64,000 nt of DNA from an uncultured Chromatiaceae bacterium (GTDB taxonomy: Bacteria > Pseudomonadota > Gammaproteobacteria > Tenderiales > Tenderiaceae). The notes beneath the pieces were generated by a model. The model was given only the letters and a program-made list of their open reading frames with translations. It made no database searches and was not told the DNA's origin. A program made the translations under genes and the position numbers. Positions 16,804 through 47,493 of the stretch are shown in pieces (the stretch's first letter is position 1; every line of letters begins with the position of its first letter). The stretch covers positions 26,921 to 90,920 of the forward strand of contig CALZIO010000005.1 of NCBI GenBank assembly GCA_945787785.1, written 5' to 3'.

Positions 16804-16818
16804 TATTGGAATAGACTA

Positions 16819-17826
16819 ATGGGCCGGAGTAGGTTAAGGCTGTGGGGATTGTTGTTTTGCTTAATGCTCACGCTGGCCTTCTCTTGTGCCAGGGCTGATC
16901 AGTCTGACGAGCCTTATGCTCGTGTCAACGATAAAGTGCTCACCAAGGCGGAGCTCGAAACCGCTATCTATTTAGCGGTGCGTCAGCGTGTTTACCATGG
17001 CCGCATGGATGACAAGCGCCTTGAGTCTCTGCGTATCCAGGTTTTGGGTGAGTTGATCGATAGGATGCTGTTGCTTGATGAGGCCAGGCGCCGAGATATA
17101 AAAGTCGATTCAGGACAGCAAAAGCAGCTCTATCTGGAGTTGCAGCGCAGGTATGATGTGAAGTCGATGCCGGATGATCATCGTCAGCAGGTTGAGGCAG
17201 AGATGCGGAAGCGGGCTGAGGAGCAGGTCTTATTGCTCAAGATTGAATCCGATGTAAAATCAGTTGCGCAACCAGAAGATGATAAATTAAGGCTGTTTTA
17301 TAAAGAGAATCTTGATAAGTTTACAACACCGCCAAGATTGCGTTTATCGGTGATCTTATTGAAAGTTGCACCGTCGGCCCCTGTTAAGGCATGGCAGGCG
17401 GCTGAAGCTGAAGCAAAGCAGTTGCATAAAAAAATAGAGGCAGGTGCGAGTTTCGCTGATTTGGCCAGGTTGCACTCTGGGGATGCCTCGGCTGACAATG
17501 GTGGGGATTTGGGGTTTGTGCATCAGGGGATGTTGTCTCCAGAGGCGCAGCAGGCGGTTGAGAGTTTAGCAGTTGGGGAGCTGTCCGCGCCTACGATTTT
17601 ACTGCAGGGCGTGGCGTTATTTCGAATTGAGGGACGTCAAGAGGCAAAGGTTAATCCTTTTGAGCATGTCAGGGAGCGTGCTGCGGGATTGTGGCGGCGT
17701 GAACAGGCTGACAAGGCCTGGGAGGGTTTGTTGCGGTCATTACGCGCTAAGGCAATTATTGAAATCTACGATAATACTATGACAGCGGCAAAAATTTGGG
17801 CGCAAAAAGAAGATGTTGTCCAGTAA
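16819..17826 (+). CDS. Periplasmic peptidyl-prolyl cis-trans isomerase (SurA-N-like plus PpiC/parvulin domain)
   Basis: Signal peptide. Parvulin signature GGDLGFVHQGMLSPEAQQAV...GELSAPTILLQGVALFRI. Helical N-terminal chaperone-like region. Confidence 0.85.
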   Translation: MGRSRLRLWGLLFCLMLTLAFSCARADQSDEPYARVNDKVLTKAELETAIYLAVRQRVYHGRMDDKRLESLRIQVLGELIDRMLLLDEARRRDIKVDSGQQKQLYLELQRRYDVKSMPDDHRQQVEAEMRKRAEEQVLLLKIESDVKSVAQPEDDKLRLFYKENLDKFTTPPRLRLSVILLKVAPSAPVKAWQAAEAEAKQLHKKIEAGASFADLARLHSGDASADNGGDLGFVHQGMLSPEAQQAVESLAVGELSAPTILLQGVALFRIEGRQEAKVNPFEHVRERAAGLWRREQADKAWEGLLRSLRAKAIIEIYDNTMTAAKIWAQKEDVVQ

Positions 17827-17838
17827 AAATAATAATGT

Positions 17839-19689
17839 ATGCGGAGTAGCTGGGCATTGCGGAATGTAATTCGATTTAGGCCCTTTGCGCTACCAGTCTT
17901 ACTGACTTTTGTTCTTCTCTTTTTAGGGGTGAGCCAAGTTGCTTTTGCTCGTTTTATGGGGCCGGTCGATGCTTCAGGCCATCTTGGTTATTATTACCGA
18001 GCTTTAAATGAAGATGGCGGCCCTGATAACAGCAGCCACCAATTGGGCGGCACGGTTAATATGTCCACCTTTTTTGGCGAACCTTGGTTGTCGACAGCCT
18101 ATCTGTCATTGAGCTTGACTCAAGATTCCTCCGAAACGGTGCAAGCTAACGCTGAGTCGAGTACCGATTCACAGCTGCTCACAGGCGATTTTGGTTTGAA
18201 TGTGTTACCTTCGAGCCGCACGCCTTTCTCGTTGCTTTTGCAGGCGACGGACACTCGGGTGGATTCCAAAGGTTCGGGATTTATCCCCATCACCTTTGTC
18301 GGGCAGGAGTACTCTACTCTGTATCTCGGATTGCGGCAGTCATTTTTGACCCAGAAGGGTACGCAATACCGCCTCAATTATGATTATCGTACCTGGGAGT
18401 CGGGAAATGATGGGGAGTACGATGATAATTTGCTGGGTTTCGAGGCTGATTTGCGCAGGCCAAAACAGCGCCTATTCGGGCGGGGTTCAGTTCAGACAAA
18501 CGAGCACTCACTTTCGCAGCGAAACAATGAAAGTTTGTTGCTTGATATGACACACTACTATTTCCCGGTGCGTAATTTCCGCCTGGATAGCAAAGCGAGT
18601 TACTACGAATATGATCGATCCTTTGTGGATCCGAGTGCAACAGATACCCGGCTTTCGACTTTGAATATTGCCCAGGTGTCGAGCAATGCCTTTTGGCGTC
18701 CTTCGAATCACCCATTGAGTTTGACTGCGGGTGCCCGTGTTTATAATACTGAGGGTAACGAAGGTAGCGTTCCCGGTACTGAGATAACCAATGTTGCCCT
18801 TAATTCAGGGCTCTTTTATCAGATGAGTCGGAATCTACGGCTGGATGCCAGCTTAAATTCGCTGTTTGGTGATAATAATGGTGTGCAAGATGATATTCAT
18901 CAACAGGCGGCTGGTTTTGTTTATCAAACGGATTTGAAAGAAGCTCTGAAGCTTGTTTATCAGGCTTATGTAGATGGTGATCTGCGGCATCGCGTGGATG
19001 TGGCCGATGATATTATGGATTGGTCTCTGATTGGGGGGCATGGCCTAAGTCGAACCTGGTGGCCGGGAGAGCGAACATCTACAATGTCCTTCCGTTTACA
19101 TCTGAGCCAAGCGTTGGCTTGGTATGGTGCGGCAGGTGATGTCTTGAGCTCCAGGTCAGGGTTAAGGTTTGATAATTCCTTTACGCTCAGCTTTAATCAG
19201 CGAGACAAGGGGGGCGATACGCTAGCGCAAATAACGATGTCTGATTCTCGCGATGTGGCCTCAGAAGATATTTCTAATGTAGCTACAGACCGGGATACGG
19301 AACAGCAATTAATCAATCTGCAGTTAAACCGAAATCAGGAATTGGGGCGTAGAAGCTCGATCACGGGTAATATTACGGTGCAATATGTACGTTTGCAGGA
19401 GGAGAATACGTCGACCGGGCTTGTAAATGTCGACGAAAGTGATACAACAACGGCTACAGGTAGAATATTGTTTCAGCATTTTCAAATGCTTGGCATCCCA
19501 AGGTTGCATTTTTCGTCAGATTTTATCGTATCCAATATATCTACACCGGGGGCGATAGATCGAACCGATTGGGAGAACCGGCTCACGTATTTAATAGGAA
19601 AATTGGAAACAACTTTAAGTTATCGTTTGACTGAGACTGACAGTCGCAATTATGATTTGCTATACTTCCGCCTCATGCGCCGCTTTTGA
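17839..19689 (+). CDS. Predicted large outer-membrane beta-barrel protein (no haem motif)
   Basis: 616 aa. Signal peptide (VLLFLGVSQVAFA). Ser/Thr/Asn/Tyr-rich alternating pattern throughout. C-terminal YFRLMRRF ends in Phe (OMP signature). No CXXCH. Confidence 0.7.
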   Translation: MRSSWALRNVIRFRPFALPVLLTFVLLFLGVSQVAFARFMGPVDASGHLGYYYRALNEDGGPDNSSHQLGGTVNMSTFFGEPWLSTAYLSLSLTQDSSETVQANAESSTDSQLLTGDFGLNVLPSSRTPFSLLLQATDTRVDSKGSGFIPITFVGQEYSTLYLGLRQSFLTQKGTQYRLNYDYRTWESGNDGEYDDNLLGFEADLRRPKQRLFGRGSVQTNEHSLSQRNNESLLLDMTHYYFPVRNFRLDSKASYYEYDRSFVDPSATDTRLSTLNIAQVSSNAFWRPSNHPLSLTAGARVYNTEGNEGSVPGTEITNVALNSGLFYQMSRNLRLDASLNSLFGDNNGVQDDIHQQAAGFVYQTDLKEALKLVYQAYVDGDLRHRVDVADDIMDWSLIGGHGLSRTWWPGERTSTMSFRLHLSQALAWYGAAGDVLSSRSGLRFDNSFTLSFNQRDKGGDTLAQITMSDSRDVASEDISNVATDRDTEQQLINLQLNRNQELGRRSSITGNITVQYVRLQEENTSTGLVNVDESDTTTATGRILFQHFQMLGIPRLHFSSDFIVSNISTPGAIDRTDWENRLTYLIGKLETTLSYRLTETDSRNYDLLYFRLMRRF

Positions 19690-19759
19690 TGCGTGAGTTT
19701 TGGGTTATAACAATAAAATTTAAGATTTTTTTCATACTAGTTTGAGGAGAACTTTCGCA

Positions 19760-20185
19760 ATGTCACGTGTGACCAAGCATAGTAAGTGGAGGTATGTTCT
19801 ACTCGGGGCAATAACGTGGCTAGCCGCGTTTAGTTTGCCTCAGTCAGCACATGCAGAGTATGCAGATGTTGTTATTAACAACTACGCCGATGCGGCCGGT
19901 ATCCGTCCTGTGGTATTTCCACACTGGTTTCACCGTATTCGTTTTCGTTGCAAGGTTTGCCACGCTGACCTTGGCTTCCAGTTCAAAGCTGGCGGTAACA
20001 AGATAACAATGGCTAAGATTATCGATGGTAAGTTCTGTGGCGCTTGCCACAACGGTGAAATCGCTTGGTCAGTTGAAAACTGTGCAATGTGTCACTCAGG
20101 TATTCCTGGCACACCGACCCATTTTCATGGTAGTACGGTTCAGCGCCTCGTTGCGCCTGCGTACAAGCCTGTTGAACAACAATAG
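19760..20185 (+). CDS. Trihaem c7-type periplasmic cytochrome
   Basis: Signal peptide ending SAHA. VVFPHWFH...CKVCH...CGACHNG...CAMCHSG (3 CXXCH, PpcA-like spacing). GAGGAGA RBS before the ATG at 19760. Confidence 0.88.
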   Translation: MSRVTKHSKWRYVLLGAITWLAAFSLPQSAHAEYADVVINNYADAAGIRPVVFPHWFHRIRFRCKVCHADLGFQFKAGGNKITMAKIIDGKFCGACHNGEIAWSVENCAMCHSGIPGTPTHFHGSTVQRLVAPAYKPVEQQ

Positions 20186-20193
20186 GGGTGGCC

Positions 20194-20934
20194 ATGATGA
20201 AAATACGTAGCAAGAGTTTATTTCTCGGTTTCGCCTTATCACTGGCAATTTCAGGTCCAGCTTGTTCTCAAGGTTATGTTGAAATCCATTCGGGTGGAGT
20301 TGAAGACATGCCTCTGGACTATGCGCCAGAATATCAGCCTGTTGATGAAGTCGCTCTCCCAGATCAAGAGCCTATTCGAGTGGCTCAGGTGTCAGGTGCG
20401 AATATATTCAACCGTAATCTGAAAAAAGATAAGATGAAGAATGCGCCACCTCCGGAAGATGGTATTCATGATACCGATAACGAAGGTACTTTCGTTCTTC
20501 AGCCACCATTGGAAGCCTACGAAGGTTTGCCTCCGAGTGATTTCGGTAACTACATCGACTGGGTTAAAGCAATTGATGAGAAGAAACTGAATCCTCGCTG
20601 GGATCGTATTGATTCAAGTGAAGAGCCCTTCGTTATGGATATGGATATCGTGCGTGAGGTAAAGGCCTCTGTGCCTGATGTAGTGTTCCCTCACCGTCAG
20701 CATACAGAGTGGTTAGCATGTTCAAATTGCCATCCAGCGATCTTCATTCCTCAAAAGGGTGCTAACCAAATAAATATGTCAGCAATCCTGTTGGGCCAAA
20801 AATGCGGTGTTTGCCACGGCAAGGTGTCTTTCCCAATTACAACTAAGTCTTGTAAGAAGTGTCACTCTAAGCCTAAGCCTGCTGATTGGCAGCCGCCTTT
20901 GAGTGAGGCTACTCTAAAGAATCCTTGGAGATAA
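20194..20934 (+). CDS. Trihaem c7-type cytochrome with N-terminal extension (probable lipoprotein)
   Basis: LAISGPAC lipobox-like signal. VVFPHRQHTEWLACSNCHP...CGVCHGKVSFP...CKKCHS (3 CXXCH). Confidence 0.88.
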   Translation: MMKIRSKSLFLGFALSLAISGPACSQGYVEIHSGGVEDMPLDYAPEYQPVDEVALPDQEPIRVAQVSGANIFNRNLKKDKMKNAPPPEDGIHDTDNEGTFVLQPPLEAYEGLPPSDFGNYIDWVKAIDEKKLNPRWDRIDSSEEPFVMDMDIVREVKASVPDVVFPHRQHTEWLACSNCHPAIFIPQKGANQINMSAILLGQKCGVCHGKVSFPITTKSCKKCHSKPKPADWQPPLSEATLKNPWR

Positions 20935-21088
20935 CCGTTATCTCTATCTGATTCTGTCTCACTAGTTATTGGTATGAGATGGCCGCCGCATGGCGGCCTT
21001 CTTACACTAGGTGGTTGAGATGTCGGGCTGGCCGATGATACGGAATGTGCCAGCGGTAAGTTGAAATGATTTACTGTCGAGGGTGACG

Positions 21089-22579
21089 ATGATGAAACCA
21101 AGATTTACAGTTCTGACAATTGCGATTGCCGCAATTTTATCGGGTTGTGGTTCTACCACAACTGAAAAGAAAGCTGATGTAACTTCGCTTGAAACAAGCG
21201 GTGAGCCAGTTGCTGTTGAAACAGAGGTAAAAAAGGCTGTGGTCGTTGCGCCTGAGCCCGCCCCAAAAGCGGCGCCAGTTGAGACTGCTCCTGTTGCGCC
21301 AGTTGTTGCTGCTCCGGCAGTGGCTGCCGCGCCGAAACGTGACCTGAAGATTCCAACTGATCCCAACACTTTTTTGGTTACTGCCTCACCCAAAACACAT
21401 GCGCACCCTTCGCATGGGCAGGGTTTGGAAACCGGCTTTGATGTCAATGGACAGCCTGGCAAAGAGGTTGTTGTAACGCGCGGTGGTGCATATAAATTTG
21501 TCGTTGATACAGGTGTGCAACACGATTTCTATTTGACAACGAATCCTGCTGGCTGGGGTGCGGGTACATACACAGATGGTGTCGAAGGCCAGTTTATCTA
21601 TCAGGGTGAGGTAACTTTCAACCCATCTAAACAGACCCCAGACCTGCTCTATTACCAGTGCCGCAATCATAAGTATATGGGCGGAAAAATCTATGTGCTG
21701 GATGAAGGCGAAGATTTGGCTAAAGTCAAAGCTGCGTTGGTTGGTACCACCGGGGCCGCAGCAGCTAAGCGCGGTTCTACCACCGTCGTTACCGAAGCTG
21801 CCGTGAAGCAGAAGTTGAGTTATGCCCAAATGGTACTTGGTTCAGGCAGTGCAAAACGTGTCGAGGCGAGTGGCAATCAGCAAGCAATTAGTACGCTGAA
21901 TAACGCCCGGGGCCAAATTGGCGCGGCCAAAGTATCTCTTGATGGTGGCCAGCTACAGCTAGCGATGGATCAGGTGAATGACGGGCTGCGTTTGATGACT
22001 GCGGCATCTCGTGAAATTACCACAGAATCTGAAATGGCTGGCGTTAACCATAAGGCGAAATATGATGAGTTGAGTAATTCACTCAAAACATATGAGGGCT
22101 CCTATAAGCGTAATTCGGAGCGTGCTGCCAAAATGAATCAGCCAATGAAGGCAAGCCTGGATGAGGCTGAGTACAATCGCTTGGTCAATGAAGGTCATGC
22201 CTTGGCCGACAAAGGCGATTACGCTGCAGCAAATAAGTCGCTTAAAAAAGCGCAGGGGATGATAACTGCTGTTCTGACAAATATGCTTCATGCTCAAACG
22301 GTGACATATGATAAAAGCTTCGAAACTCCGCAGGAGGAGTATGAGTATGAATTGGCGCGTTTAGAGAACTACGAGGAGCTTGTTCCTATCGCGATCGAGC
22401 AGAAACAGCCATCGCAACGCGCATTAGAGTTGATTGATGGATTCGTACAGAAAGCAGCTAAGATTAAGGATGAAGGCAAAGAAGTTGCAGCCAAGGGTGA
22501 TTATAAAATGGGAATTATGGCCATGCAGGCGGCAACTTCAAATCTGCAGCGTGCATTACGCATGGCTGGGGTGAACTAG
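21089..22579 (+). CDS. Lipoprotein with Ala/Pro-rich linker, cupredoxin-like (type-1 Cu motif) domain and long helical C-terminal domain
   Basis: Lipobox AILSGC. The beta-rich segment KEVVVTRGGAYKFVVDTGVQHDF...LLYYQCRNHKYMGGKIYV gives an H...C-x2-H-x2-M ligand pattern, as in amicyanin-type blue copper proteins. About 270 aa of Ala/Lys/Gln-rich predicted helices follow. Confidence 0.7.
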   Translation: MMKPRFTVLTIAIAAILSGCGSTTTEKKADVTSLETSGEPVAVETEVKKAVVVAPEPAPKAAPVETAPVAPVVAAPAVAAAPKRDLKIPTDPNTFLVTASPKTHAHPSHGQGLETGFDVNGQPGKEVVVTRGGAYKFVVDTGVQHDFYLTTNPAGWGAGTYTDGVEGQFIYQGEVTFNPSKQTPDLLYYQCRNHKYMGGKIYVLDEGEDLAKVKAALVGTTGAAAAKRGSTTVVTEAAVKQKLSYAQMVLGSGSAKRVEASGNQQAISTLNNARGQIGAAKVSLDGGQLQLAMDQVNDGLRLMTAASREITTESEMAGVNHKAKYDELSNSLKTYEGSYKRNSERAAKMNQPMKASLDEAEYNRLVNEGHALADKGDYAAANKSLKKAQGMITAVLTNMLHAQTVTYDKSFETPQEEYEYELARLENYEELVPIAIEQKQPSQRALELIDGFVQKAAKIKDEGKEVAAKGDYKMGIMAMQAATSNLQRALRMAGVN

Positions 22580-22679
22580 TGATATTGGCGTAATGTCAAA
22601 GTTTGTGTATAGTTCGTAGGCTGCCATCAATAGTGATAGCAGCCGGATTTTTGGGAAGCAGTTAATTAGATTTGGTATT

Positions 22680-23276
22680 ATGTTGCGTTTCAAACGTCAC
22701 AAGTTGTTTGCCTTTGTTTTAATAAGCTTTTTATTAGGCCTGTTGTCGCCACGGGTAGCCTTTGTACAAGAACAGTTTGAGGGTGATTTTTGGAATAGTG
22801 GTGAGCATTATCAGCTGGATAGTAAGGTTGTTCCAGTCGATGAAGATGGCATACATGATCCGGACAATGATGCTGTAAAAGTTCTTCAAGAGCCTATTGA
22901 GGCGATGGAGACCTTTCCTCGTGATAATTCAGGTGTTATTGATTGGGTAAAAGTCTTGGATCAAGGCTTAATTGCCCCTCGTAAAGGCCTGTATGGCGAT
23001 GAAGAAATGCATGCTGTGGATTTTGATGTGATATTCAAAAACACGGGTTCAATGCCATATGTGCGTTATCCTCATCGTCAGCACACCGAGTGGTTGACCT
23101 GCAAAAACTGTCATCCCAAGATTTTCCTGCCACAAAAGGGTGGTAATCCTGTGACGATGTCGGGGATTATGCAGGGCAAGTATTGTGGTATCTGCCATGG
23201 TAAAGTTGCTTTTCCTCCAACTAAGAATTGTGGACGATGCCATTCTGTACCGAGAGACAAAGTCGGCTTAAGATAA
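22680..23276 (+). CDS. Trihaem c7-type cytochrome (paralogue of 20194-20934)
   Basis: Signal peptide. YPHRQHTEWLTCKNCHP...CGICHGKVAFP...CGRCHS. Shares the DGIHD.DN...IDWVK extension with the 248-aa paralogue. Confidence 0.88.
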   Translation: MLRFKRHKLFAFVLISFLLGLLSPRVAFVQEQFEGDFWNSGEHYQLDSKVVPVDEDGIHDPDNDAVKVLQEPIEAMETFPRDNSGVIDWVKVLDQGLIAPRKGLYGDEEMHAVDFDVIFKNTGSMPYVRYPHRQHTEWLTCKNCHPKIFLPQKGGNPVTMSGIMQGKYCGICHGKVAFPPTKNCGRCHSVPRDKVGLR

Positions 23277-24571
23277 TAGCTTGTCTGTTTGGGGTGATGC
23301 AGCTGATAGGTTGCGCCACAACTGAGCAGACGTCTACGCCAAGCGTGGCTGATGATAAGGCAGCTGCAGAGCTGGCTGAGCTGTTTGATGATTTTTCCGA
23401 CGAATCAGAAACTCCAGTCACTGAAACGCAAGCTGTTTCTGAGCCCGTAGAAACTCCACCAAAAGACGTCATAGAAGAAGCTGTCGATGAATCGATAGAT
23501 CCATTGGATCAAATTGCTGCGACAGCTCCTGAGCCTGTACTTCCCAAGCCCCATGCCGTAGCCACTATCCAGATCTATGATTGGAATGTGATTGATGGCG
23601 CGCCTATTGGTAATGCCTTTACCGCCGCGGTTCAAAACCGCTTTATACGCCCAGTAGCCATTGCGGTTCAGGGTGAATATCTCTACGTAGTAGATGAGGG
23701 GTATGATGCACTGTATCGGTTAGATCTGTCCACGGAAGAGCTAGAGGTCATATTTGACCTTAAAAAGGTGGTAAAAGGCGAAGTTGCCGATATTTATGTC
23801 GATAAGGATTTTTCATTTTACTTGACCGATACCGAGGCGGGTCGGGTCCTGCATTTTGATCAAAATGGACGTTTGATTCAGGAGTTTCGTAATCATTTTA
23901 ATTTGGTCAAGCCGGTTGCAGTAACGGTGTTTGAGAGTGGTGACTTGGTTGTCGCCGATGGTCATTACGACCACCTCTTACACTTCAATAGCGAGGGTAA
24001 GCTGATTGCAACTTACGGTGCTCGAGGCGATGCCGTGGCTGAATTTCTCAATATATTGACCATGGCAAAAGGCCCGGACGGGTTTTATGTCGGTGGCCGG
24101 GTTGGTCGTCGTATTCAGGTTCTCGGTTCAGATGGGAATTACCTCTATGCATTTGAAGAGGGTACGGTCGTTTTTCCGGCATCCATTGTCGTTGATGGCA
24201 ATAATCGCAGCTATGTTGCAGATTATATGGACAACACCATCAAGGTATTTGATCGCGGCGGCCCAATTGGTGTCATCGGTGGCCACGGTACTGAGCCTGG
24301 GAAATTTAAGCGCGTTACTGATCTTTGGCTGGTTGGAAACGTCTTATACATCGCCGACAGCCTCAATGGCAGAATCCAGGCGGCCAAGTTGTCGCCAGAT
24401 CCGGTGCCGCTTCCTAGTCCAGTATTCGAATCAGATGCTGAGCTATTTCAGGAAACAGTAGAAGAGTCTGCCGAAGCGGATGTGAAATCTGTAGACGGTA
24501 TGGCGGAAGACATTGTTGAAGGTGCGGACGAAAAAGCTCAACCCGCAAAATCATCAGATTCTATCCAATGA
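23237..24571 (+). CDS. NHL-repeat six-bladed beta-propeller lipoprotein with acidic N- and C-terminal tails
   Basis: Lipobox MQLIGC. Six NHL-type repeats (YLYVVDEGYDALYRLD, FYLTDTEAGRVLHFD, LVVADGHYDHLLHFN, FYVGGRVGRRIQVL, SYVADYMDNTIKVFD, LYIADSLNGRIQAA). Start assigned to the ATG at 23237, 40 nt inside the previous gene. Confidence 0.85.
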   Translation: MPFCTERQSRLKIIACLFGVMQLIGCATTEQTSTPSVADDKAAAELAELFDDFSDESETPVTETQAVSEPVETPPKDVIEEAVDESIDPLDQIAATAPEPVLPKPHAVATIQIYDWNVIDGAPIGNAFTAAVQNRFIRPVAIAVQGEYLYVVDEGYDALYRLDLSTEELEVIFDLKKVVKGEVADIYVDKDFSFYLTDTEAGRVLHFDQNGRLIQEFRNHFNLVKPVAVTVFESGDLVVADGHYDHLLHFNSEGKLIATYGARGDAVAEFLNILTMAKGPDGFYVGGRVGRRIQVLGSDGNYLYAFEEGTVVFPASIVVDGNNRSYVADYMDNTIKVFDRGGPIGVIGGHGTEPGKFKRVTDLWLVGNVLYIADSLNGRIQAAKLSPDPVPLPSPVFESDAELFQETVEESAEADVKSVDGMAEDIVEGADEKAQPAKSSDSIQ

Positions 24572-25698
24572 TCGAACATAAGCGTTGTTTCACAGCGCTT
24601 GGCTGTGTCGTGTTTCTGTTAATTCTCACGGGCTGTGCTCAGCTCCCCGCAGTATTTGAATATAAACCATTTGATGAAGCCAAAGGCGATCTGGTGTGGC
24701 CAGAGCCGCCTGATATCGCTCGATATCGTTACGTTGGCCAATTAACCGGTGAGGAAAATTTCCCCCGCCCAGGTGAGGACGCGCTCAATGCCGGGGCGCG
24801 GTTGGTTCGCTGGATGGTCGGGCTGGTGGGGCATAGTGCGGATCCTGTGATTCTGCAACGCCCGCAGGCAGTGATCACTGATGGTCAAGGAAAAATTTTT
24901 GTCAGCGATGTTAGTCGCCAGGCTGTTTACATGTTTGACACGGTTCAAGCAGAGTTGAAAGTGTGGGAAAACGCAGTAGAAGGGATTCGCTTTGAACTAC
25001 CAATTGGATTAGCCGTTGGTCTGAATGGTGAGTTGCTGGTATCGGATGCCTCGTTGCAATTAGTTGCCCGGCTGGGGCCGGATGGTGAGCCAATCGGAGT
25101 GATTGGTTTAGATCAGCTACAGCATCCCACTGGATTGGCCAGAGACCCCCAGCTCGGACGAATCTATGTGGCAGATCGGGGTGCCAACAACATCAAGGTT
25201 TTTTCTGACGTGGGAGAATTTCAGTTTGAATTTGGCGAGTTTGGTGAGGAAGCTGGCCAGCTGAATGGGCCTACCTACTTGTTTTGGCACGAGAATTTAC
25301 TCTATGTGACGGATGCGCTTAATTCAAGAATACAGATTTTTTCACCTGATGGTGAATATCAGTCCCATTTTGGGCGGCGCGGACTTTACTTGGGGGATTT
25401 GCCCCGTCCTAAGGGGGTGGCAGTCGCTCAAGACGGTAAAGTCTATGTGGTAGAATCCTATTACGACTATTTGTTAATATTCAACCGCGAAGGTGAGTTA
25501 TTATTACCTATTGGCGGTACAGGCCATGAGGTGGGACAGTTTTATCTGCCTGCCGGGGTCTGGGTTGAGAATAACTATGTTTATGTTGCGGATACATTTA
25601 ACGGCCGCGTGATGATTTTTGAATATCTTGGAGATGGAGATGCGTCGGACGTTGCAGGTGATAGCAGCTCTGATATTGACGACGCTGCTGGCGGTTAA
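24568..25698 (+). CDS. NHL-repeat beta-propeller lipoprotein
   Basis: Lipobox LILTGC. NHL repeats (IFVSDVSRQAVYMFD, LLVSDASLQLVARL, IYVADRGANNIKVF, LYVTDALNSRIQIF, VYVVESYYDYLLIF, VYVADTFNGRVMIF). ATGA overlap with the upstream gene. Confidence 0.88.
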   Translation: MIEHKRCFTALGCVVFLLILTGCAQLPAVFEYKPFDEAKGDLVWPEPPDIARYRYVGQLTGEENFPRPGEDALNAGARLVRWMVGLVGHSADPVILQRPQAVITDGQGKIFVSDVSRQAVYMFDTVQAELKVWENAVEGIRFELPIGLAVGLNGELLVSDASLQLVARLGPDGEPIGVIGLDQLQHPTGLARDPQLGRIYVADRGANNIKVFSDVGEFQFEFGEFGEEAGQLNGPTYLFWHENLLYVTDALNSRIQIFSPDGEYQSHFGRRGLYLGDLPRPKGVAVAQDGKVYVVESYYDYLLIFNREGELLLPIGGTGHEVGQFYLPAGVWVENNYVYVADTFNGRVMIFEYLGDGDASDVAGDSSSDIDDAAGG

Positions 25699-28378
25699 CG
25701 CCCAAGCAGCAGAAAGAGTATCGGATATCCGCAATACCAAACACAATTTCTCCGCCGTGGTAATACCTGCGTTGCCGGATGGTGCTGCGCGTACGGTCCA
25801 GGCAGTTTCAGAATCGCAAATCTGCGCTTTTTGCCACACGCCGCATAAAGCGAGTAAACAAGCTCGGGCGCCGATTTGGAATCGCAAATTATCAGGTGCT
25901 ACTTATACGCCTTATACCAGCTCCTCGATTGATGCTGTTAATCTTGGCCAACCCAATACCAAGTCCAAATTATGTCTTTCCTGCCATGACGGCACCCTGG
26001 CTATTGGAGCTGTTAATGTTCTCAATAGAGTTGAAAACCCAAACATCCCAATGCGGGGTACAGCACCTGATGGCACTATGCCTGCCGGTTTGGGCGATCG
26101 GTCTGGTTTTACCCGCCGCCTCGGCACGGACTTGACCAATGACCACCCGATTTCATTCACTTATGATTCAGCCCAGGCCAGCCGCGACGGAGAGTTGCGT
26201 GACCCTTCTCTGGATACAGTTATAGGCGAACGTGGGCCGGGAACGCATCGAGCAACACTACCTCTGGAAGATGGTCAGATGGAATGTGTCTCCTGCCATG
26301 ATCCACACATACGCAGTACTTCAGGTGAAAATATCAAGTTTCTGCGGGTTAACCGGTTTCAACAAACTACCCCAGTCGAAGGCACTTATAATCAGGCAAA
26401 CGATATTATTTGCTTGGCGTGTCACGAGAAATCCGGTTGGGCTGACTCGGCGCATGCCAATATGGCGGTGGGAGATGAAAGATACACCGATGCCGCGGCC
26501 GAGATTCGAGAATTTCCACAGAATATGCAAGTTTGGCAAGCAGCCTGTTTGAATTGCCATGACCCGCATACCGTTCAGGGCTCGCGTCGCCTGTTGCGTG
26601 AAGGTACTGATGATGCAGGTCAGGTTGTGAGTGCTGGTGGAAGTGCTATCCGCGTTAAGCAGGGCGGTGGTGCAGCGATAGAAGAGACTTGCTATGCATG
26701 CCATTCAGTTGATGGCAACGTCTTGCAGGGGCAGCCAAACAAGGGTGTGTTTCAAGTGCCTGATATTAAAACCGATTTCACCACCATGCGCATCCACATG
26801 CCGATCGCAAGTGAAGACCAGGCAGCTGGCGAAGAACGCCATGCTATCGGTACTTTCCCGGCGCCGCAAAACGGCAAGGACTTCATGGAGTCACAGCAGC
26901 GTCTCGGCAAGGGTGACCTGAGTAACCGCCATGCCGAGTGTACAGACTGTCATAATCCTCATCGTGTCATCAAGAATCGTAGCTTTAATGACGACCCCAA
27001 GTTCCCGGATATTGAAGGGACCCATAACCACACAACTTCACAGATTGCCGGTACGCTGGAAGGGCAGCATACCAATCTTGCCTCAGGGGTCCTGCGTGGA
27101 GCCTGGGGTGTTGAGCCAACCTCCTGGACCAGTACGGAGTTCACCAGCCGACCAGTCACCTTTGAGGTCAAGCGTGGTGACGCTATAGTCGGTGGCAATG
27201 CCGATGTCAGCGCGACTTATGTGACGCGTGAGTATCAGATTTGTATGAAATGCCATTCGAATTATGGTTTTGATGCACCAGCACCATTGGGCACCAATCA
27301 TTCTGGTGGTACGCCAGCCGGAACCAATGCACTCTTTAACTATACCAACCAAGGTATGGAATATCAGTCACCAGATGATCATAAAGGCGAAGTGACCCCT
27401 GCTACGCCTACTGGGGCATATGCTGGCAGTGTTGGTGAGTGTGCTGATGTTAATTTTGGCACCCTGGATTTAACCGATCCCGCTGCATTGCTTTACTACA
27501 ATACTTATGTAAAACGGGCTGGCTATGTTGATCCCAATGGAAACTGCGTTAATTATGTTACTGATAATCATCGTGCCTGGCACCCAATTTTGAAGGAGAC
27601 AGGTCGTACCGCTGTTCCTGGTGGTGGAGGTGTGCGCGATGCTGATTCCGATGACTGGCATGAGCCGTTCAACGCTGCGGTGGGTACACAGACGATGTAT
27701 TGTACTGATTGCCACGGTTCGGATACCGCTCAAGGCACAGTAGTGCCGCGCGGATTGCAGCCCAATGGTAATGTGTGGGGACCACATGGGTCAGAAAACG
27801 ACTTCCTGCTGAAAGGCAGTTGGAGTGATGAAACCGGTCAGAACACTGCTGCAGATGGTCTCTGTTTCAAGTGTCACAACTACAACTACTATGGCAGAAA
27901 ATATCCCGCCGGTGTGATTAACCCGAATTCGACCAAGGATAGTGGTTTTAGCCGAGATCCGGCTTTGGGAGTGGCATCATGCCTCTATGTGCCATCAGTA
28001 AATCTTCATACTGGACATGCTCAAGAAAGACAGGTGAGTAATTTCCGTTGTAGTTATTGCCATGTTTCGATCCCGCATGGTTGGAAGAACAAAAATTTCC
28101 TCAATAATCTGAACGATATCGGCCGTGAAGTAGGGTTGGCAACTGGTGGTAATCAGGTGCGTAATAATCAGACCAGCCGTTATTACCGTGGTCCTTATTA
28201 CAATGGCGCAGTGTTGAAAATTGTGCAATTCCGCCAGAGTGGCCAATGGGTGCATAACACCTGTGGTTCGGCTGGCAATCCCGGTAATGGCAATGTTGGT
28301 GGTAATGGTAACTTCGGAAACATACCCTGGATGACGGACCAGGGTTCAGGCAGTGAGGCCTGTAACCTAATCCCATGA
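25640..28378 (+). CDS. Undecahaem (11 CXXCH) large c-type cytochrome
   Basis: Signal peptide (LLAVNAQAAE). 11 canonical CXXCH motifs. The N-terminal roughly 270 aa repeat the architecture of the 271-aa tetrahaem protein. Asn/Gly-rich C-terminal tail. GGAGA RBS 5 nt before the ATG at 25640. Confidence 0.9.
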   Translation: MRRTLQVIAALILTTLLAVNAQAAERVSDIRNTKHNFSAVVIPALPDGAARTVQAVSESQICAFCHTPHKASKQARAPIWNRKLSGATYTPYTSSSIDAVNLGQPNTKSKLCLSCHDGTLAIGAVNVLNRVENPNIPMRGTAPDGTMPAGLGDRSGFTRRLGTDLTNDHPISFTYDSAQASRDGELRDPSLDTVIGERGPGTHRATLPLEDGQMECVSCHDPHIRSTSGENIKFLRVNRFQQTTPVEGTYNQANDIICLACHEKSGWADSAHANMAVGDERYTDAAAEIREFPQNMQVWQAACLNCHDPHTVQGSRRLLREGTDDAGQVVSAGGSAIRVKQGGGAAIEETCYACHSVDGNVLQGQPNKGVFQVPDIKTDFTTMRIHMPIASEDQAAGEERHAIGTFPAPQNGKDFMESQQRLGKGDLSNRHAECTDCHNPHRVIKNRSFNDDPKFPDIEGTHNHTTSQIAGTLEGQHTNLASGVLRGAWGVEPTSWTSTEFTSRPVTFEVKRGDAIVGGNADVSATYVTREYQICMKCHSNYGFDAPAPLGTNHSGGTPAGTNALFNYTNQGMEYQSPDDHKGEVTPATPTGAYAGSVGECADVNFGTLDLTDPAALLYYNTYVKRAGYVDPNGNCVNYVTDNHRAWHPILKETGRTAVPGGGGVRDADSDDWHEPFNAAVGTQTMYCTDCHGSDTAQGTVVPRGLQPNGNVWGPHGSENDFLLKGSWSDETGQNTAADGLCFKCHNYNYYGRKYPAGVINPNSTKDSGFSRDPALGVASCLYVPSVNLHTGHAQERQVSNFRCSYCHVSIPHGWKNKNFLNNLNDIGREVGLATGGNQVRNNQTSRYYRGPYYNGAVLKIVQFRQSGQWVHNTCGSAGNPGNGNVGGNGNFGNIPWMTDQGSGSEACNLIP

Positions 28379-29397
28379 TGCGCTGGTTACGCAGGTTAGC
28401 CTCAACACGGCTAACCTTGCTTGGCATGGCGCTGTTAGCTGTCGGCGCCAGCCTCAGTTATGGCAATCCCGCCGAAGTTTCTGCTTGGGTGTTGATTGCC
28501 CCGCTGCTGTTTCTCGCGCTTAATTTACTTGCTGCAATTATTACCCAGCCAGGCATCAATCGGCGCCCGGGTTTGTTGTTGTTTCATTTGGGACTGCTGT
28601 CTATTTGCGTTCTCACTGCCATTGGCCAGTTGACCTATTTCGAATCCCGCGTCGAAGTGACGCAAGACAGCGTCTTTGAATTGTCAGCAATGCAAGAGGT
28701 GCAGCAGGGCCCGTGGCATCTTGGTGAACTGGGCAAGGTTCAGTTTGTCCAACAGGGTTACACCGTAGAATACCGGCCAGGATTGGTGCGTGGGGCGACA
28801 CGAAGCCATATATTGCTACCTGACGGCAAAGGTGGTTGGAAAGCTGAGGTGGTCGGGGATGATACGCCGCTGATTATCGATGGCTATCGTTTCTATACCA
28901 CCTTTAACAAGGGGTTTGCGGCGGTTCTGACATGGATTACAGAACAGGGTGAGGCAATGACAGGTACGATACACATGCCTTCCTATCCGCTGTTTGATTA
29001 CAAGCAGGCGAATAGTTGGTTGCCGCCAGGTAGCGAGGAAGAAATCAAGTTCTGGCTGCGTCTCGAAACCGATTTTGACCGTGAGGCAGATTGGCTCTTG
29101 GATGGTGCCAAAACACACGCCGTGTTAGTCGTTAATGACGGCGACCAGCGGGTTGAATTGCAGCCGGGCCAAGGCATCGATTTGCCAGGTGGTCATTTAC
29201 GTTATGAGGCATTGAGCACCTGGATGGGTTACAAGATTTTTTATGACCCGACACTGAAATGGCTGTTTATAGCAGCGATGATCACGGTGTTTGGTTTGTG
29301 TCTGCATTACTGGAGTAAATTTCAGGACCAGCCCATGGACCAGCCAGAAGATCAATCACCAGAGCAGTTAGCGGGCAAGGCGCAGGATAGAAAGTGA
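28375..29397 (+). CDS. ccsB: System II cytochrome c biogenesis protein ResB/CcsB (short form)
   Basis: N-terminus LRRLASTRLTLLGMALLAVGAS, TM His (LLLFHLGLL), large soluble loop, final TM with His (LCLHYW). Lies immediately upstream of ccsA. Start overlaps the cytochrome stop (ATGATG). Confidence 0.75.
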   Translation: MMRWLRRLASTRLTLLGMALLAVGASLSYGNPAEVSAWVLIAPLLFLALNLLAAIITQPGINRRPGLLLFHLGLLSICVLTAIGQLTYFESRVEVTQDSVFELSAMQEVQQGPWHLGELGKVQFVQQGYTVEYRPGLVRGATRSHILLPDGKGGWKAEVVGDDTPLIIDGYRFYTTFNKGFAAVLTWITEQGEAMTGTIHMPSYPLFDYKQANSWLPPGSEEEIKFWLRLETDFDREADWLLDGAKTHAVLVVNDGDQRVELQPGQGIDLPGGHLRYEALSTWMGYKIFYDPTLKWLFIAAMITVFGLCLHYWSKFQDQPMDQPEDQSPEQLAGKAQDRK

Positions 29398-29416
29398 ATC
29401 AGGTGGAAACAAATAG

Positions 29417-30265
29417 ATGACAAGCACAGTTACAGAACTTCCCTGGATGTGGGCCGGTCTTTTCTCCTATGCTCTGGCGACGATAATCGCCTTTCGCACT
29501 GTCTGGCAGCTTGGCGGTGTCGGCTCTATTGCATTGCCAAGCCGCAATACTGAACGCTGGATATTATTGTTTATTGTTAGTGGTGTTGTGTTGTTGACCA
29601 TTGCTCTTGGTGTGCGTTGGGATCGACTCGGTCACGGCCCTTTCGTCAATCTCTATGAGCTGCTGATGAGTCAGCTGTTTAGTCTTGGTTTGATTTATGC
29701 CATCGTCTATTGGCGCGTGCCAAGCCTTCGTTCAAGTGCTGTGGTGGTGTTACCACTGATCTGGATTTTAGGCACCTGGATCCTGTTTCTCGAGCCGGTC
29801 GATAGTCGCTTTCCACCTACATACCATAACAACTGGCTTTGGGCTCATGTTGGGTTCGGCAAGGTCTTTCTTTCGTTCTGTCTGGTGGCAGCAGGGTTGG
29901 CGGGTGTCATTTTGTTGCGAGCCATTCCGCGTTTTGGCCGTTCATTTTCCAATATGAGCGACGCAGCGCTTGATCAGCTTGCCTGGCGTTTCATGATGCT
30001 GGCACTGGTGTTTGATAGCCTGATGCTGATTGCAGGCGCGGTCTGGGCGCAGGATGCCTGGGGGCGTTATTGGTCCTGGGACGCACTGGAAACCTCTTCT
30101 TTCATCACCTGGCTTTCTATCGGTGCAGGTATTCATGCCCGCTTGAGTTTCAAAATTCCTATCCGGATGGGGGCTCTGGTGATTCTGGCGATTTTTGGCC
30201 TTGCGTTCACCACCTATTTTGGCGCGCCGTATTACAGCGAAGCCGCGCACAAGGGAGTTATTTGA
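29417..30265 (+). CDS. ccsA: System II cytochrome c assembly protein CcsA (haem lyase/exporter subunit)
   Basis: Trp-rich WWD motif VWAQDAWGRYWSWDALETSSFITWL. Multiple TM helices. 282 aa. Confidence 0.88.
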   Translation: MTSTVTELPWMWAGLFSYALATIIAFRTVWQLGGVGSIALPSRNTERWILLFIVSGVVLLTIALGVRWDRLGHGPFVNLYELLMSQLFSLGLIYAIVYWRVPSLRSSAVVVLPLIWILGTWILFLEPVDSRFPPTYHNNWLWAHVGFGKVFLSFCLVAAGLAGVILLRAIPRFGRSFSNMSDAALDQLAWRFMMLALVFDSLMLIAGAVWAQDAWGRYWSWDALETSSFITWLSIGAGIHARLSFKIPIRMGALVILAIFGLAFTTYFGAPYYSEAAHKGVI

Positions 30266-30268
30266 TCC

Positions 30269-30958
30269 ATGTCTGTTGTTGAGTCACACAACCTGCTCGA
30301 AAAAACCACGGCTATCACGACAGTCATGTTGGTGTTGGTGATGTTGGCGATGATGTCAGGGTTTGCCAATCGTGCCCAGTTTGTCTTTCAGCCTGTCATT
30401 GAAACTGAGGAGATACTCGTCGACGCCAAGGCTGATCCGCGCGGCCATGCGCAACAATACCGGCAGCGGTTGATTGATGAACGTTTCCAGCAGGCGGTCG
30501 CAATGCTGCATGCCAATCAGTTTGATTTCGCCATTACCGCCCTGCATCGTGTGATTGAGCTGGCGCCGAAAATGCCCGAAGCCTATGTCAACATGGGTTA
30601 CGCCTTGATTGGCAAGCAGGATTACAAGGCAGCGGCAGATTTTTTTAACGCCGCGATTGAACTCAAACCGTATCAGGCCAATGCCTACTGGGGCCTGGCG
30701 GTATCGCTGGAGCAGCTGGGCGAACTAGACGCAGCGCTCGGCGCCATGCGTACCTTTATTCATCTCTCGCCACCTAATGATCCCTTCCTGCGTAAAGCGC
30801 GTTCAGCTTTATGGGAGTGGGAGTCAGCACTTAAACGTGGTCCATTGCCTGAAGCGGAACAGGAGTGGATTGAACGTCGCAGTGGAGAATGGCAGGAGCG
30901 AAATAGTCTTGAGGCAGATATGCCCGATGCAAAAGATCACACTATAGATGTGAAATAA
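30269..30958 (+). CDS. Membrane-anchored TPR-repeat protein
   Basis: N-terminal TM (ITTVMLVLVMLAMM). TPR-like repeats (AYVNMGYALIGKQDYKAAADFFNAAIELKP, AYWGLAVSLEQLGELDAALGAM). Confidence 0.75.
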   Translation: MSVVESHNLLEKTTAITTVMLVLVMLAMMSGFANRAQFVFQPVIETEEILVDAKADPRGHAQQYRQRLIDERFQQAVAMLHANQFDFAITALHRVIELAPKMPEAYVNMGYALIGKQDYKAAADFFNAAIELKPYQANAYWGLAVSLEQLGELDAALGAMRTFIHLSPPNDPFLRKARSALWEWESALKRGPLPEAEQEWIERRSGEWQERNSLEADMPDAKDHTIDVK

Positions 30959-39125: not shown

Positions 39126-40754
39126 CTAGTTCTTTTTCGGTTGCGTGAAACTCTCTGCCTGCCATGGATCTGCTTCGTTCGAAGCGGCTGAGATTGGTGT
39201 TTGTTTGATACGTAATACTGCTAGGTCAACCTTGGTTTGTATATTTTCTATCGATTCATCGCTGCGTCCATAACAAAAACTCTGCAACGCATGGACTGCT
39301 TCTGCAATCGTCCTATCCTCAGGATGGTATGCCATCCAGCGTTGCAGGCCTTGTTCCAGTGTATTGCTGCCCATCGCGTTTAACAGCTGTTGTTGTAATG
39401 GATGACGTTTATCCTGTGGTCTCGTGATTGACGTTGTTGTAGGTGCTGGCGTTTTATCATTGCCTTTACGCCATAACTTCAACAAGGTGGTCAGCCAAAG
39501 CAGTGTCATGATGACGGTGGCGAGTTGCCAAATCCAATTGGGTTGAGTGTTGCTCGTTGGTTTAATCTTTGATGTGGCGACGGTATCGGTACTAGTTACA
39601 ACAGACTCTGGTTGCGGCATTGTCCCGGGCGCTACATTAATTGTTTGGCCGGGCAGTTCTACTAAGGCAGCCTGGCCAGTTACCGGATCGAAATAGGGGA
39701 TGCGTATGGCTGGCAGCTCAAATTCACCAGCAGAGAGTGGCATGATTGACAGTGAATAGTCGGCAGCATCCATAATGCCAGCACTTGTTTGTTCAGTGTG
39801 ATAACGCGCCGGGTCCGGGTAGAGCTTCAAACCTTCGGGTAATGTTATGCCAGGTAATAATCTGGGTAAGGCCGTGACGCCTACTGGTGCCTTCAGGGTC
39901 AGTGTCAATTCGTTGAGTTCATATTGTTTTAAAGTGTCAGGCAAAGATGATGCTGTCAGTGTGGGTCTGCCGATGATGATGTCTGCTGGTACATCCGCGG
40001 GTAAGGCTTTGACTTCAAAGTCCAGTGTTTGATGCGGCAGGCGCAGCTGGCGCCCAGCCTTGGTAGTCACCCAAATATCAGGTAGCTGCACAGAGAACAC
40101 GCCTGCCTGATTGGGAAATACCGACCAGGCGATGCGCTCAACTTCGTAGTCAAAGCCATTAACGGTTTCTTGTCGTGTTGCCTGCGGCATTTTCCAGTTG
40201 GAAAGCATCTCAATCTGTACCGGCGCCGTTTCAAAATTACTGCCCTGTGATGCAGACTCCAATTCAACGCGATGATAAAGATCAAGGTAAGCCACCACCT
40301 GTTGCCCTACCCAGGGGCTGATAACATTAGCGTCACTGCGCACAAAGATTTCATCAGCTATGGTGGTATCTATCTCCAATACATCTATTTCGATTGCTTC
40401 AGTGCTCAGGCCATCAATCATAAATGGTGGAATAGTGAGCGTGCCGGTATGTTTCGGAAACAGCTCTACCTTGATCTCTGATGTGGAACGACCCTGACCA
40501 AGATAGATGTTGTAGTTAGTGCTGGCTGATGGTCTGCCAACATTGAAGTTGTTGCTCAGCAGAGTCAGGTCAACATTAGGATCAACCCCTTCAGCACGCA
40601 GGCGGTTATCACTGTTGATCAGGCTCAAAGTGAACAACAACGGTTCGTTGAGTTGCAGTTGTGTGCGATCAACCTGGGCGTTGAATTCGGCCGCCCAGCT
40701 TGTCTCAATAAGTAACAGGCTGCTCAGCAGTGTCAGTAGTAAACGCGTTACCAT
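39126..40754 (-). CDS. batD: BatD-like (oxygen-tolerance family) protein
   Basis: Signal peptide, long beta-rich ectodomain, single TM near the C-terminus (WIWQLATVIMTLLWLTTLL). Last gene of the MoxR/Bat operon. Confidence 0.7.
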   Translation of the reverse strand: MVTRLLLTLLSSLLLIETSWAAEFNAQVDRTQLQLNEPLLFTLSLINSDNRLRAEGVDPNVDLTLLSNNFNVGRPSASTNYNIYLGQGRSTSEIKVELFPKHTGTLTIPPFMIDGLSTEAIEIDVLEIDTTIADEIFVRSDANVISPWVGQQVVAYLDLYHRVELESASQGSNFETAPVQIEMLSNWKMPQATRQETVNGFDYEVERIAWSVFPNQAGVFSVQLPDIWVTTKAGRQLRLPHQTLDFEVKALPADVPADIIIGRPTLTASSLPDTLKQYELNELTLTLKAPVGVTALPRLLPGITLPEGLKLYPDPARYHTEQTSAGIMDAADYSLSIMPLSAGEFELPAIRIPYFDPVTGQAALVELPGQTINVAPGTMPQPESVVTSTDTVATSKIKPTSNTQPNWIWQLATVIMTLLWLTTLLKLWRKGNDKTPAPTTTSITRPQDKRHPLQQQLLNAMGSNTLEQGLQRWMAYHPEDRTIAEAVHALQSFCYGRSDESIENIQTKVDLAVLRIKQTPISAASNEADPWQAESFTQPKKN

Positions 40755-44824: not shown

Positions 44825-44832
44825 CAGGCTCC

Positions 44833-47483: not shown

Positions 47484-47493
47484 GGTTGGCTTC

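Follow-up and report, generated by a model that had tools for sequence, protein, structure and literature searches.

The three genes that follow the undecahaem cytochrome gene uetJ in the window, a 64,000-nucleotide stretch of DNA from a Tenderia-genus MAG, probably encode a private maturation machine of the Uet cluster, with the Ccm system serving the other cytochromes. This reading as a whole is assigned a probability of roughly 0.62. The trio consists of a short ResB/CcsB-type subunit, a short CcsA-type subunit, and a membrane-anchored TPR protein, and it coexists with a complete System I in the same window.

The arrangement as such is already known. Eddie et al. (bioRxiv 10.1101/2022.05.06.490989) named the uetABCDEFGHIJ cluster, with uet standing for undecahaem electron transfer, and the published module comprises uetA-J, ccsAB, nrfG, and batABD, followed by a type I operon. 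The coexistence of ccsAB-nrfG with a type I system was noted in the same work in 2022, ccsAB-nrfG were proposed as Uet cytochrome maturation genes, and System II was described as unusual in Gammaproteobacteria. The window is one more orthologue of this ccsAB-nrfG/uet layout, and the trio at 28375-30958 is almost certainly the ccsAB-nrfG tail, i.e., the published uet-linked ccsBA-TPR of Tenderia. Its nearest named relatives are Tel_16550 and Tel_16555 of Ca. Tenderia electrophaga, with 77% identity for ResB and 82% for CcsA. Gene order and domains agree with the published succession of uetABCDEFGHIJ, ccsB-ccsA, and the TPR gene (Eddie et al. Fig. 2A), and the uet synteny holds in the 80 loci compared (L006-L085). 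The likeness to the cluster of Ca. Tenderia electrophaga and the Tenderiales thus covers genus, orthologous proteins, and gene order, and continues downstream with the bat genes, the type I ccm operon, the thioredoxin, and a secondary cytochrome cluster. In contrast to the published cluster, the bat genes of the window lie on the opposite strand, and an insert of ~8 kb, whose first gene encodes a PMT_2 glycosyltransferase, stands between them and the TPR gene. The first-pass annotation of this DNA placed the genes and the coexisting System I correctly, and the three open reading frames of the ResB/CcsA/TPR trio were found behind the 11-haem gene where it had located them, but it did not recognise the published Tenderia uet cluster. 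Its explanations were given as a list of alternatives, none of which was chosen.

Table 1. Features of the window relevant to cytochrome maturation.
Feature	Coordinates	Strand	Basis
uetA-I: tetrahaem UetA, PPIase UetB, barrel UetC, trihaem c7 UetD/E/G, cupredoxin UetF, NHL propellers UetH/I	15988..25698	+	Pfam/NCBIfam
uetJ, 11-haem (undecahaem) predicted extracellular cytochrome	25619..28378	+	11 CXXCH
Short ResB/CcsB-type subunit, 340 aa	28375..29397	+	PF05140; four predicted TM helices, beta-rich periplasmic domain of ~200 aa
Short CcsA-type haem-handling/synthase subunit, 282 aa	29417..30265	+	PF01578; WWD motif WGRYWSWDALE
Membrane-anchored TPR protein, 229 aa ("NrfG/NlpI-like" in the literature)	30269..30958	+	Generic TPR Pfam matches
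batD / vWA-TPR / vWA / DUF4381 / DUF58 / MoxR block (batABD part of the published module)	39126..45825	-	Pfam matches
ccmABC(D)EFGHI, complete System I	46863..53900	+	NCBIfam equivalog/subfamily matches for CcmA, B, C, E, F, G, H, I
TlpA/ResA-like periplasmic thioredoxin, candidate reductant for apocytochrome thiols	53912..54451	+	NCBIfam TlpA and ResA matches, under cut-offs

The TGA stop codon of uetJ overlaps the ATG of the short ResB gene as ATGA (...CCATGATGCGC...), so that the start/stop coupling of ccsB to the 11-haem gene noted previously could be seen directly. The short ResB matches PF05140 with 46.6 bits against a gathering cut-off of 24.6, with only residues 58-194 aligned to profile positions 145-283 of 486, while an NCBIfam profile search gave no match. 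Members of the family span 320-367 aa, below the at least 450 aa typical of ResB/CcsB, and much of the canonical periplasmic domain is missing from the short ResB (340 aa compared with 562 aa for the canonical ResB on contig L087). The AF2 model has a pLDDT of 84. In a Foldseek search of this model against the PDB, the top matches were 7S9Y (E 3.8e-7) and 7S9Z (E 7.6e-5), both H. hepaticus CcsBA, at a probability of 1.0, albeit with a TM-score of only 0.30 and an rmsd of 22 Å; CcmF ranks after CcsBA among the fold matches. A sequence-only PDB search gave no match for the short ResB. The candidate TM-His1 is H71, located in the predicted helix 65-87 and invariant in family alignments of 15 and 13 sequences.

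The short CcsA exceeds the gathering cut-off of PF01578 (71.8 bits, cut-off 29.9) and scores 109.2 bits with TIGR03144, under the equivalog cut-off of 187.6. Alignment to 7S9Y assigns H144 to P-His1 (H761), H240 to TM-His2 (H858), and H278 to P-His2 (H897). Across 23 sequences, the most distant at 32% identity, none of the three histidines varies, nor do W215, G216, W219, and W221 of the WWD motif, and D222 is conserved in 96%. The pair had been described as intact, which the alignments bear out: neither gene is truncated, and the haem-handling histidines and the WWD motif are conserved. On these sequence features, the short ResB and CcsA very probably form an active haem-handling synthase. 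With canonical System II CcsB/CcsA (ResB/ResC; H. hepaticus CcsBA) they share the WWD domain, P-His1 and P-His2, two TM histidines, and a four-TM ResB with a periplasmic domain, CcsBA being the best fold match of the ResB model. They differ in size, as ResB has ~450-700 aa in canonical systems and ~340 aa in the short pair, and in the small CcsA with its low TIGR03144 score. Furthermore, the short pair is always accompanied by a membrane TPR protein and coexists with System I.

The TPR protein has a single N-terminal hydrophobic segment. Against the CcmI/NrfG-type model PF23914 (TPR_CcmH_CycH) it reaches 24.2 bits, under the cut-off of 42, and NCBIfam returned only generic TPR families, every score being under its cut-off. 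Its gene follows that of CcsA in 76 of 76 assessable loci, which turns the third gene of the earlier description into an invariable partner.

Conservation of the trio is equally strict at the level of the locus. The ResB gene is followed by that of CcsA in each of the 79 loci that could be assessed, and across 80 species every assessable locus keeps the three genes together. In 63 of 74 assessable loci, uetJ lies directly upstream of the short ResB gene, and in four more it is one gene off. The trio stands apart from uetJ in seven loci, and genomes with an unlinked pair still hold uetJ elsewhere. A TlpA-like thioredoxin gene comes directly after the trio in six of these seven, and the ccm operon follows the thioredoxin in L073, L078, and L084, the three unlinked loci long enough to show it. 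This layout looks more like a general maturation supra-operon. Among 301 genomes sampled from the class, the short ResB is encoded in 28, all of which (28/28) also encode a UetJ-type cytochrome, and it occurs in 0 of the 270 genomes without UetJ. Overall, the pair is present in 166 species-level genomes and in 17 of 17 genomes of the order, and CcmE is encoded in 48 of 50 trio-bearing genomes. One family departs from this pattern. In f69 (G331, 97% complete; G134, 100% complete), System I is present together with a genuine uet cluster, whose UetJ has 11 haem sites, whereas the short ResB and the short CcsA are both absent. The pair is therefore not universally required: in one lineage at least, System I evidently suffices for a UetJ-type cytochrome.

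The cytochromes of the operon contain 24 CXXCH sites, with four in UetA, three each in UetD, UetE, and UetG, and 11 in UetJ. Scanning these proteins revealed no CXXCK, CX3CH, or CX4CH motif, and no CH dipeptide beyond the CXXCH sites. The reading of exclusively canonical motifs in the first-pass annotation thus holds for 24 of 24 sites. Its view that a special motif does not explain the second system extends to the whole family, as exactly 11 canonical CXXCH are found in 58 of the 58 UetJ-family proteins examined. Since all haem sites are CXXCH, there is no visible chemical reason for a special lyase.

Client-dedicated haem lyases are known from Wolinella succinogenes (NrfI, CcsA1, and CcsA2) and from E. 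coli (NrfEFG). NrfI and NrfEFG serve CXXCK and CcsA1 serves CX15CH, while in NrfEFG the TPR partner NrfG recognises the client. The trio resembles these systems in that a putative extra lyase is encoded beside its likely cytochrome client and, as in NrfEFG, has a TPR partner; the difference lies in the motifs, which are non-standard there and CXXCH throughout the UetJ family. A further comparison is offered by the type II maturation system of anammox bacteria, for which dedication to anammoxosome multihaem cytochromes was proposed (Ferousi et al. 2013, PMC4222556; cited by Eddie et al.). Common to both is the idea of a System II set reserved for one population of multihaem cytochromes. However, System I is absent from anammox bacteria, where the dedication is by compartment, whereas the short pair occurs in a System I host and is tied to one cytochrome family by gene linkage.

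The ccm operon, described earlier as intact, lies ~16 kb downstream of the trio; its eight assigned proteins pass the NCBIfam models, and a CcmD-like small open reading frame is found inside 48882-49103. In the inventory of the assembly, the short ResB is the sole ResB, and the remaining PF01578 matches are CcmC, CcmF, and a YpjD-like protein. One full-length DsbD is encoded on another contig. The TlpA-like thioredoxin had been suggested as the reductant, and it is a plausible partner, given that homologues with 35-46% identity are encoded directly 3' of the TPR gene in 12 related loci.

The following model is proposed; it builds on the observed identity, intactness, conservation, linkage, and co-occurrence of the genes, while synthase activity, client specificity, the function of the TPR protein as an adaptor, and the redox route are inferred. 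The short ResB/CcsB and CcsA would constitute a catalytically competent, divergent haem exporter and cytochrome c synthase of the System II type. By analogy with CcmI and NrfG, the TPR protein may act as a client-holding adaptor. The complex would serve the private maturation of the co-translated UetJ, its likely client, and possibly of other Uet cytochromes too, with the housekeeping Ccm system maturing the remaining cytochromes. Reducing power for the apocytochrome thiols could pass from the single DsbD to the TlpA/ResA-like thioredoxin.

Beyond the close relatives, the same association recurs in five distant contexts, in which CcsA identity ranges from 55 to 39%. Each contains an 11-haem cytochrome of ~800 aa, a short ResB, a short CcsA, and a TPR protein. 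The exact order cytochrome-ResB-CcsA-TPR is found in four of the five, with the TPR gene located just upstream of CcsA in the remaining one (L090). One of these contexts is a Myxococcota MAG, where the other uet genes are absent. On contig L087, the trio adjoins a canonical ResB (562 aa), a canonical CcsA (341 aa, TIGR03144 263.9 bits), and a thioredoxin; the short and the canonical pair share only 33% (ResB) and 23% (CcsA) identity. In addition, genome G332 encodes CcmE, a canonical pair, and a short pair. It is tentatively suggested, at somewhat less than even odds, that a UetJ-type cytochrome, a CcsB of ~330 aa, a short CcsA, and a membrane TPR protein form an ancient, self-contained cassette of a cytochrome plus its own synthase. 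Such a cassette would be a distinct three-component System II subtype, in which the TPR adaptor gives specificity for a substrate with canonical CXXCH. It would be kept whichever general system the host has, be it I, II, or both, and would be passed between phyla as one piece.

A general second maturation system is an unlikely, though coherent, alternative. The pair would then be an ordinary System II synthase without client specificity, sharing the whole periplasmic cytochrome load with Ccm, for example under high haem flux or particular redox or oxygen conditions. The canonical Uet haem motifs, the sufficiency of System I alone in family f69, and the sublineage in which the trio heads a supra-operon of TlpA-like thioredoxin and ccm genes away from uetJ are all in line with it. 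Against it stand the constant company of a UetJ-family gene in the sampled genomes, the translational coupling of the pair to uetJ, and its retention next to a canonical System II operon, from which extra capacity would already be available. In addition, the undecahaem gene is the only uet gene that accompanies the pair beyond Gammaproteobacteria. Pure dosage or throughput, one of the options of the first-pass annotation, is hard to reconcile with the 28/28 co-occurrence and with retention next to canonical System II. Specificity of the short pair for UetJ or the Uet cytochromes is slightly favoured over a role as a general second system.

Haem trafficking other than thioether attachment to Uet cytochromes, such as haem delivery or export for another envelope component or action on a client outside the cluster, appears quite improbable. 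The export of haem by CcsBA in addition to its synthase activity, the reduced periplasmic domain of ResB, and the CcsA score under the equivalog cut-off would fit such a role. Against it, the features required for attachment, namely both external histidine ligands and the active site with its WWD motif, are conserved, and a c-type cytochrome is the one neighbour that stays constant from phylum to phylum. Least probable, with a very small chance, is that the pair is an evolutionary passenger, which arrived together with the cytochrome module from a lineage using System II and persists in System I hosts although they do not need its function. This would agree with the rarity of System II in Gammaproteobacteria (Eddie et al.), with family f69, which lost the pair or never had one, and with the module in the Myxococcota MAG, which implies lateral movement at some depth. 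Import from a System II lineage had also been considered earlier, with a compositional check named for it; GC, GC3, and codon use are indistinguishable from the genome background, leaving a recent transfer without compositional support, and the pair occurs in all 17 genomes of the order. Its wide spread, the catalytic histidines and WWD motif conserved down to 32% identity, the background-like composition, and the strictly conserved gene order point to long-term purifying selection, against the passenger explanation.

If the trio is indeed a client-specific synthase for a CXXCH-only cytochrome, this would be the first case of a dedicated haem lyase with a specificity that an unusual haem-binding motif does not explain. 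Heterologous production of Uet-type extracellular haem wires, whether for bioelectrochemistry or for work on the mechanism of electron uptake, might then need co-expression of the trio instead of the usual ccm plasmid.

The three genes following the undecahaem cytochrome, encoding a short ResB, a short CcsA and a membrane-anchored TPR protein, form part of a locus orthologous to a previously described one, the undecahaem electron transfer (uet) cluster. The closest named proteins are Tel_16550 (77%) and Tel_16555 (82%) of Candidatus Tenderia electrophaga. According to Pfam and NCBIfam matches, the ten genes upstream of the short ResB encode, in order, a tetrahaem cytochrome, a PPIase, a 616-aa protein without haem that is predicted to form an outer-membrane barrel, a pair of trihaem c7 proteins, a cupredoxin lipoprotein, a further c7 protein, two NHL propellers, and lastly the undecahaem cytochrome UetJ. 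This order matches uetABCDEFGHIJ of Eddie et al. (bioRxiv 10.1101/2022.05.06.490989) exactly. The same authors describe type II proteins as uncommon in Gammaproteobacteria, place the type I pathway downstream of the bat operon, and report that in Tenderia electrophaga the TPR gene is followed by batD. An outlier uet cluster is reported from Leptothrix cholodnii. In contrast, the bat/MoxR block of the window lies on the opposite strand, and approximately 8 kb, beginning with a PMT_2 glycosyltransferase gene, separate the TPR gene from the bat genes.

The first-pass annotation had described a three-gene block coupled to the 11-haem gene, with an intact ccm set in the same window. ORFs and Pfam/NCBIfam matches confirm both sets of genes, and the coupling is a true codon overlap, as the ResB start codon shares bases with the stop of uetJ, the 919-aa cytochrome gene just upstream (CCATGATG). 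A promoter and terminator scan of positions 28000-31300 gave no signal exceeding shuffled expectation. The window belongs to a 3.06-Mb MAG that is 83% complete, in which the ResB described here is the only one found. The remaining CcsA-family matches are CcmC, CcmF, and a YpjD-like protein adjoining a CorC/HlyC-type gene; this WWD-less protein looks like the common YpjD type, outside System II. Full-length DsbD is encoded once in the MAG, on another contig.

Features of the window and of related genomes (L, locus or contig; G, genome; C, contig; f69, family of G331 and G134)
Feature	Position	Strand	Remark
uetJ	25619-28378		predicted extracellular cytochrome
ResB-like ORF, 340 aa	28375-29397	+	Pfam ResB 46.6 bits, residues 58-194 only
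CcsA-like ORF, 282 aa	29417-30265	+	Pfam Cytochrom_C_asm 71.8 bits; motif WGRYWSWDALE
TPR protein, 229 aa	30269-30958	+	generic TPR repeats after one N-terminal hydrophobic segment
Inserted block	31119-39117
bat/MoxR block	39126-45825
FGE-sulfatase (SUMF1-like) domain gene	45945-46772	+	directly upstream of ccmA
ccmA, B, C, E, F, G, H, I	46863-53900	+	NCBIfam models passed
CcmD-like ORF			between ccmC and ccmE
TlpA/ResA-like thioredoxin	starts 53912		after ccm genes
YpjD-like protein, 269 aa	L003 1483-2292 (G000:C52)	-	same MAG
uet loci of f69	L099 (G331:C42:1-12000), L100 (G134:C89)
Haem-free ORF, ~725 aa	L067 7732-9915, L079 7822-9993, also L069, L082		between uetJ and short ResB; signal-peptide-like N-terminus
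FGE-like genes	L088 11391-12326, L090 5210-7080, also L065, L068		in L065 and L068 upstream of ResB
Short ResB with one in-frame TAA	G003/G061:C6:18990-20000, G054:C41		two related genomes
ResB and UetJ matches across several frames with stops	G363:C11:381-384 kb

Loss of the conserved TM histidines had been named as the sign of an inactive pair; ResB H71 and CcsA H240 are both present and invariant, and the pair is intact. Upon alignment with the solved H. hepaticus CcsBA (7S9Y), CcsA H144, H240 and H278 match P-His1 (H761), TM-His2 (H858) and P-His2 (H897), respectively. These residues and the WWD Trp are the same in all 23 homologues compared, the most distant at 32% identity, and the WWD Asp is kept in 96%. 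H71 is located in predicted helix 3 of ResB and is invariant in two alignments. The AF2 model of the short ResB (pLDDT 84) consists of four TM helices round a beta-rich domain of ~200 aa, and its best PDB fold matches are CcsBA (E 3.8e-7, with a TM-score of only 0.30) and then CcmF. These matches came from a fold search, as a sequence-only PDB search with the short ResB returned nothing relevant. By its sequence the pair is placed as a divergent branch, because the short CcsA scores 109 against the cut-off of 187.6 of the NCBIfam CcsA equivalog model TIGR03144, and the short ResB has ~340 aa compared with at least 450 aa in canonical ResB. The interrupted ResB and UetJ frames of a few relatives (see table) may reflect decay or assembly error.

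The linkage of these genes was assessed in the best 80 of 166 genomes with short ResB relatives, obtained by a pattern scan with one genome per species; almost all of the 80 are uncultured Gammaproteobacteria. Among these best 80, CcsA follows ResB at 79 of 79 assessable loci and the TPR gene comes next at 76 of 76. The uetJ gene lies directly upstream of ResB at 63 of 74 assessable loci, one gene away at 4/74, with an extra haem-free ORF of ~725 aa in between, and is non-adjacent at 7/74. UetJ genes were found elsewhere in all three genomes without adjacent uetJ that were checked. Short ResB is present in every genome of the order (17/17), and in an evenly drawn sample of the class it occurs in 28 of 301 genomes, all 28 of which encode a UetJ homologue; none of the 301 has the pair without UetJ. 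CcmE is also encoded in 48 of 50 carrier genomes. Carriers have one short ResB each; genome G142 (C6 and C18) holds two short ResB/CcsA pairs together with CcmE.

Looking up the contigs of the 50%-cluster representatives nearest to the short CcsA gave five more distant contexts, with CcsA identities of 55%, 49%, 42%, 41% and 39%. In each, a 785-812-aa cytochrome that has exactly 11 CXXCH motifs is accompanied by a short CcsA, a TPR protein and a ResB of 320-338 aa, and the order 11-haem cytochrome, ResB, CcsA, TPR is kept in four of the five. On contig L090, interspersed genes include two FGE-sulfatase genes, and the TPR gene stands immediately upstream of CcsA. In the Myxococcota MAG among the five, the other uet genes are absent from the neighbourhood. 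Across phyla, the partner that stays with the pair is the undecahaem cytochrome. FGE-like genes also occur in or beside the undecahaem/ResB/CcsA/TPR unit in the Myxococcota MAG and on other distant contigs. A search of the Uet proteins for the FGE-sulfatase substrate motif (C/S)xPxR found none.

Several explanations for a second haem attachment system can be weighed against these data. A special haem motif is excluded: the five Uet cytochromes carry 24 CXXCH sites (4+3+3+3+11), and CXXCK, CX3CH, CX4CH and orphan CH are absent both from these and from 58 UetJ-family proteins. The earlier reading of canonical CXXCH only holds in both sets, and a motif-based reason for a private lyase is lacking because the UetJ family is without non-standard haem motifs. 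The only extra conserved cysteines of UetJ are the C-terminal pair C882 and C915. Nor does the pair substitute for an absent System II, since it is kept beside a canonical pair and under any general system of the host. On contig L087, the three genes are immediately followed by a canonical ResB (562 aa), CcsA (341 aa) and thioredoxin; the canonical CcsA passes TIGR03144 with 263.9 bits compared with 110.5 for the uet-linked CcsA, and identity between the short and canonical pairs is just 33% and 23%. Genome G332 has CcmE together with both a canonical and a short pair, which amounts to three haem-attachment systems in one genome. In this 2.3-Mb genome (C9 and C2), the canonical ResB is a 703-aa frame (424 bits) with its own CcsA. 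Import from a System II lineage, listed among the alternatives in the first-pass annotation, finds no compositional sign of recent transfer. Against 786 long ORFs of the genome, the three genes have a GC of 0.517 (background 0.497±0.036), a GC3 of 0.55-0.56 (0.51±0.067) and a codon-usage (RSCU) distance of 0.34-0.54 (0.47±0.08), and recent horizontal transfer is rejected. Identity to the window ResB falls from 71-81% in the genus to 62-64% in the family and 35-60% in the rest of the class; together with the background-like composition, this is consistent with a long history of vertical inheritance in this gammaproteobacterial radiation. The presence of the cassette in a Myxococcota MAG points to lateral movement at an older date.

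Two observations weigh against an obligatory role of the pair with UetJ. Genomes G331 (97% complete) and G134 (100%) of family f69, which belongs to the same class, have System I and a genuine uet cluster, with homologues of UetF, UetG, UetH and UetI and an 11-haem UetJ at 37-39% identity, and neither short ResB nor short CcsA was found anywhere in them. This family is a natural 'knock-out' lineage for the pair. Its UetJ differs at 49 of 266 conserved columns, including a deleted loop at ~555-568 (window UetJ numbering); as a marker of pair loss these changes are rejected, being inseparable from general divergence in one full and one partial sequence of ~39% identity. The other observation comes from one sublineage, in which a TlpA-like thioredoxin gene directly follows the three genes at six of the seven loci that lack an adjacent uetJ. 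Loci L073, L078 and L084, which are long enough, have the order ResB, CcsA, TPR, thioredoxin, ccmA-I, which looks like a merged maturation operon joining both systems. L067, L069 and L082 are also assigned to this sublineage; in L073 and L078 the upstream uet cluster is without uetJ, and a pair of UetJ paralogues is encoded on other contigs. The thioredoxin gene between the two sets lends support to the earlier suggestion that a TlpA-like protein may be the source of reductant.

Taken together, the first-pass annotation stands in its coordinates and genes, and its interpretation is only partly supported. The identity, intactness and linkage of the three genes are observed; synthase activity, client specificity and the adaptor role of the TPR protein are what we infer from them. 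Most likely, a minimal CcsB, CcsA and the TPR adaptor would constitute a System II-type synthase of three components, reserved for the co-translated UetJ-type cytochrome and drawing reductant from DsbD by way of a TlpA-like thioredoxin, while Ccm would serve the other cytochromes.
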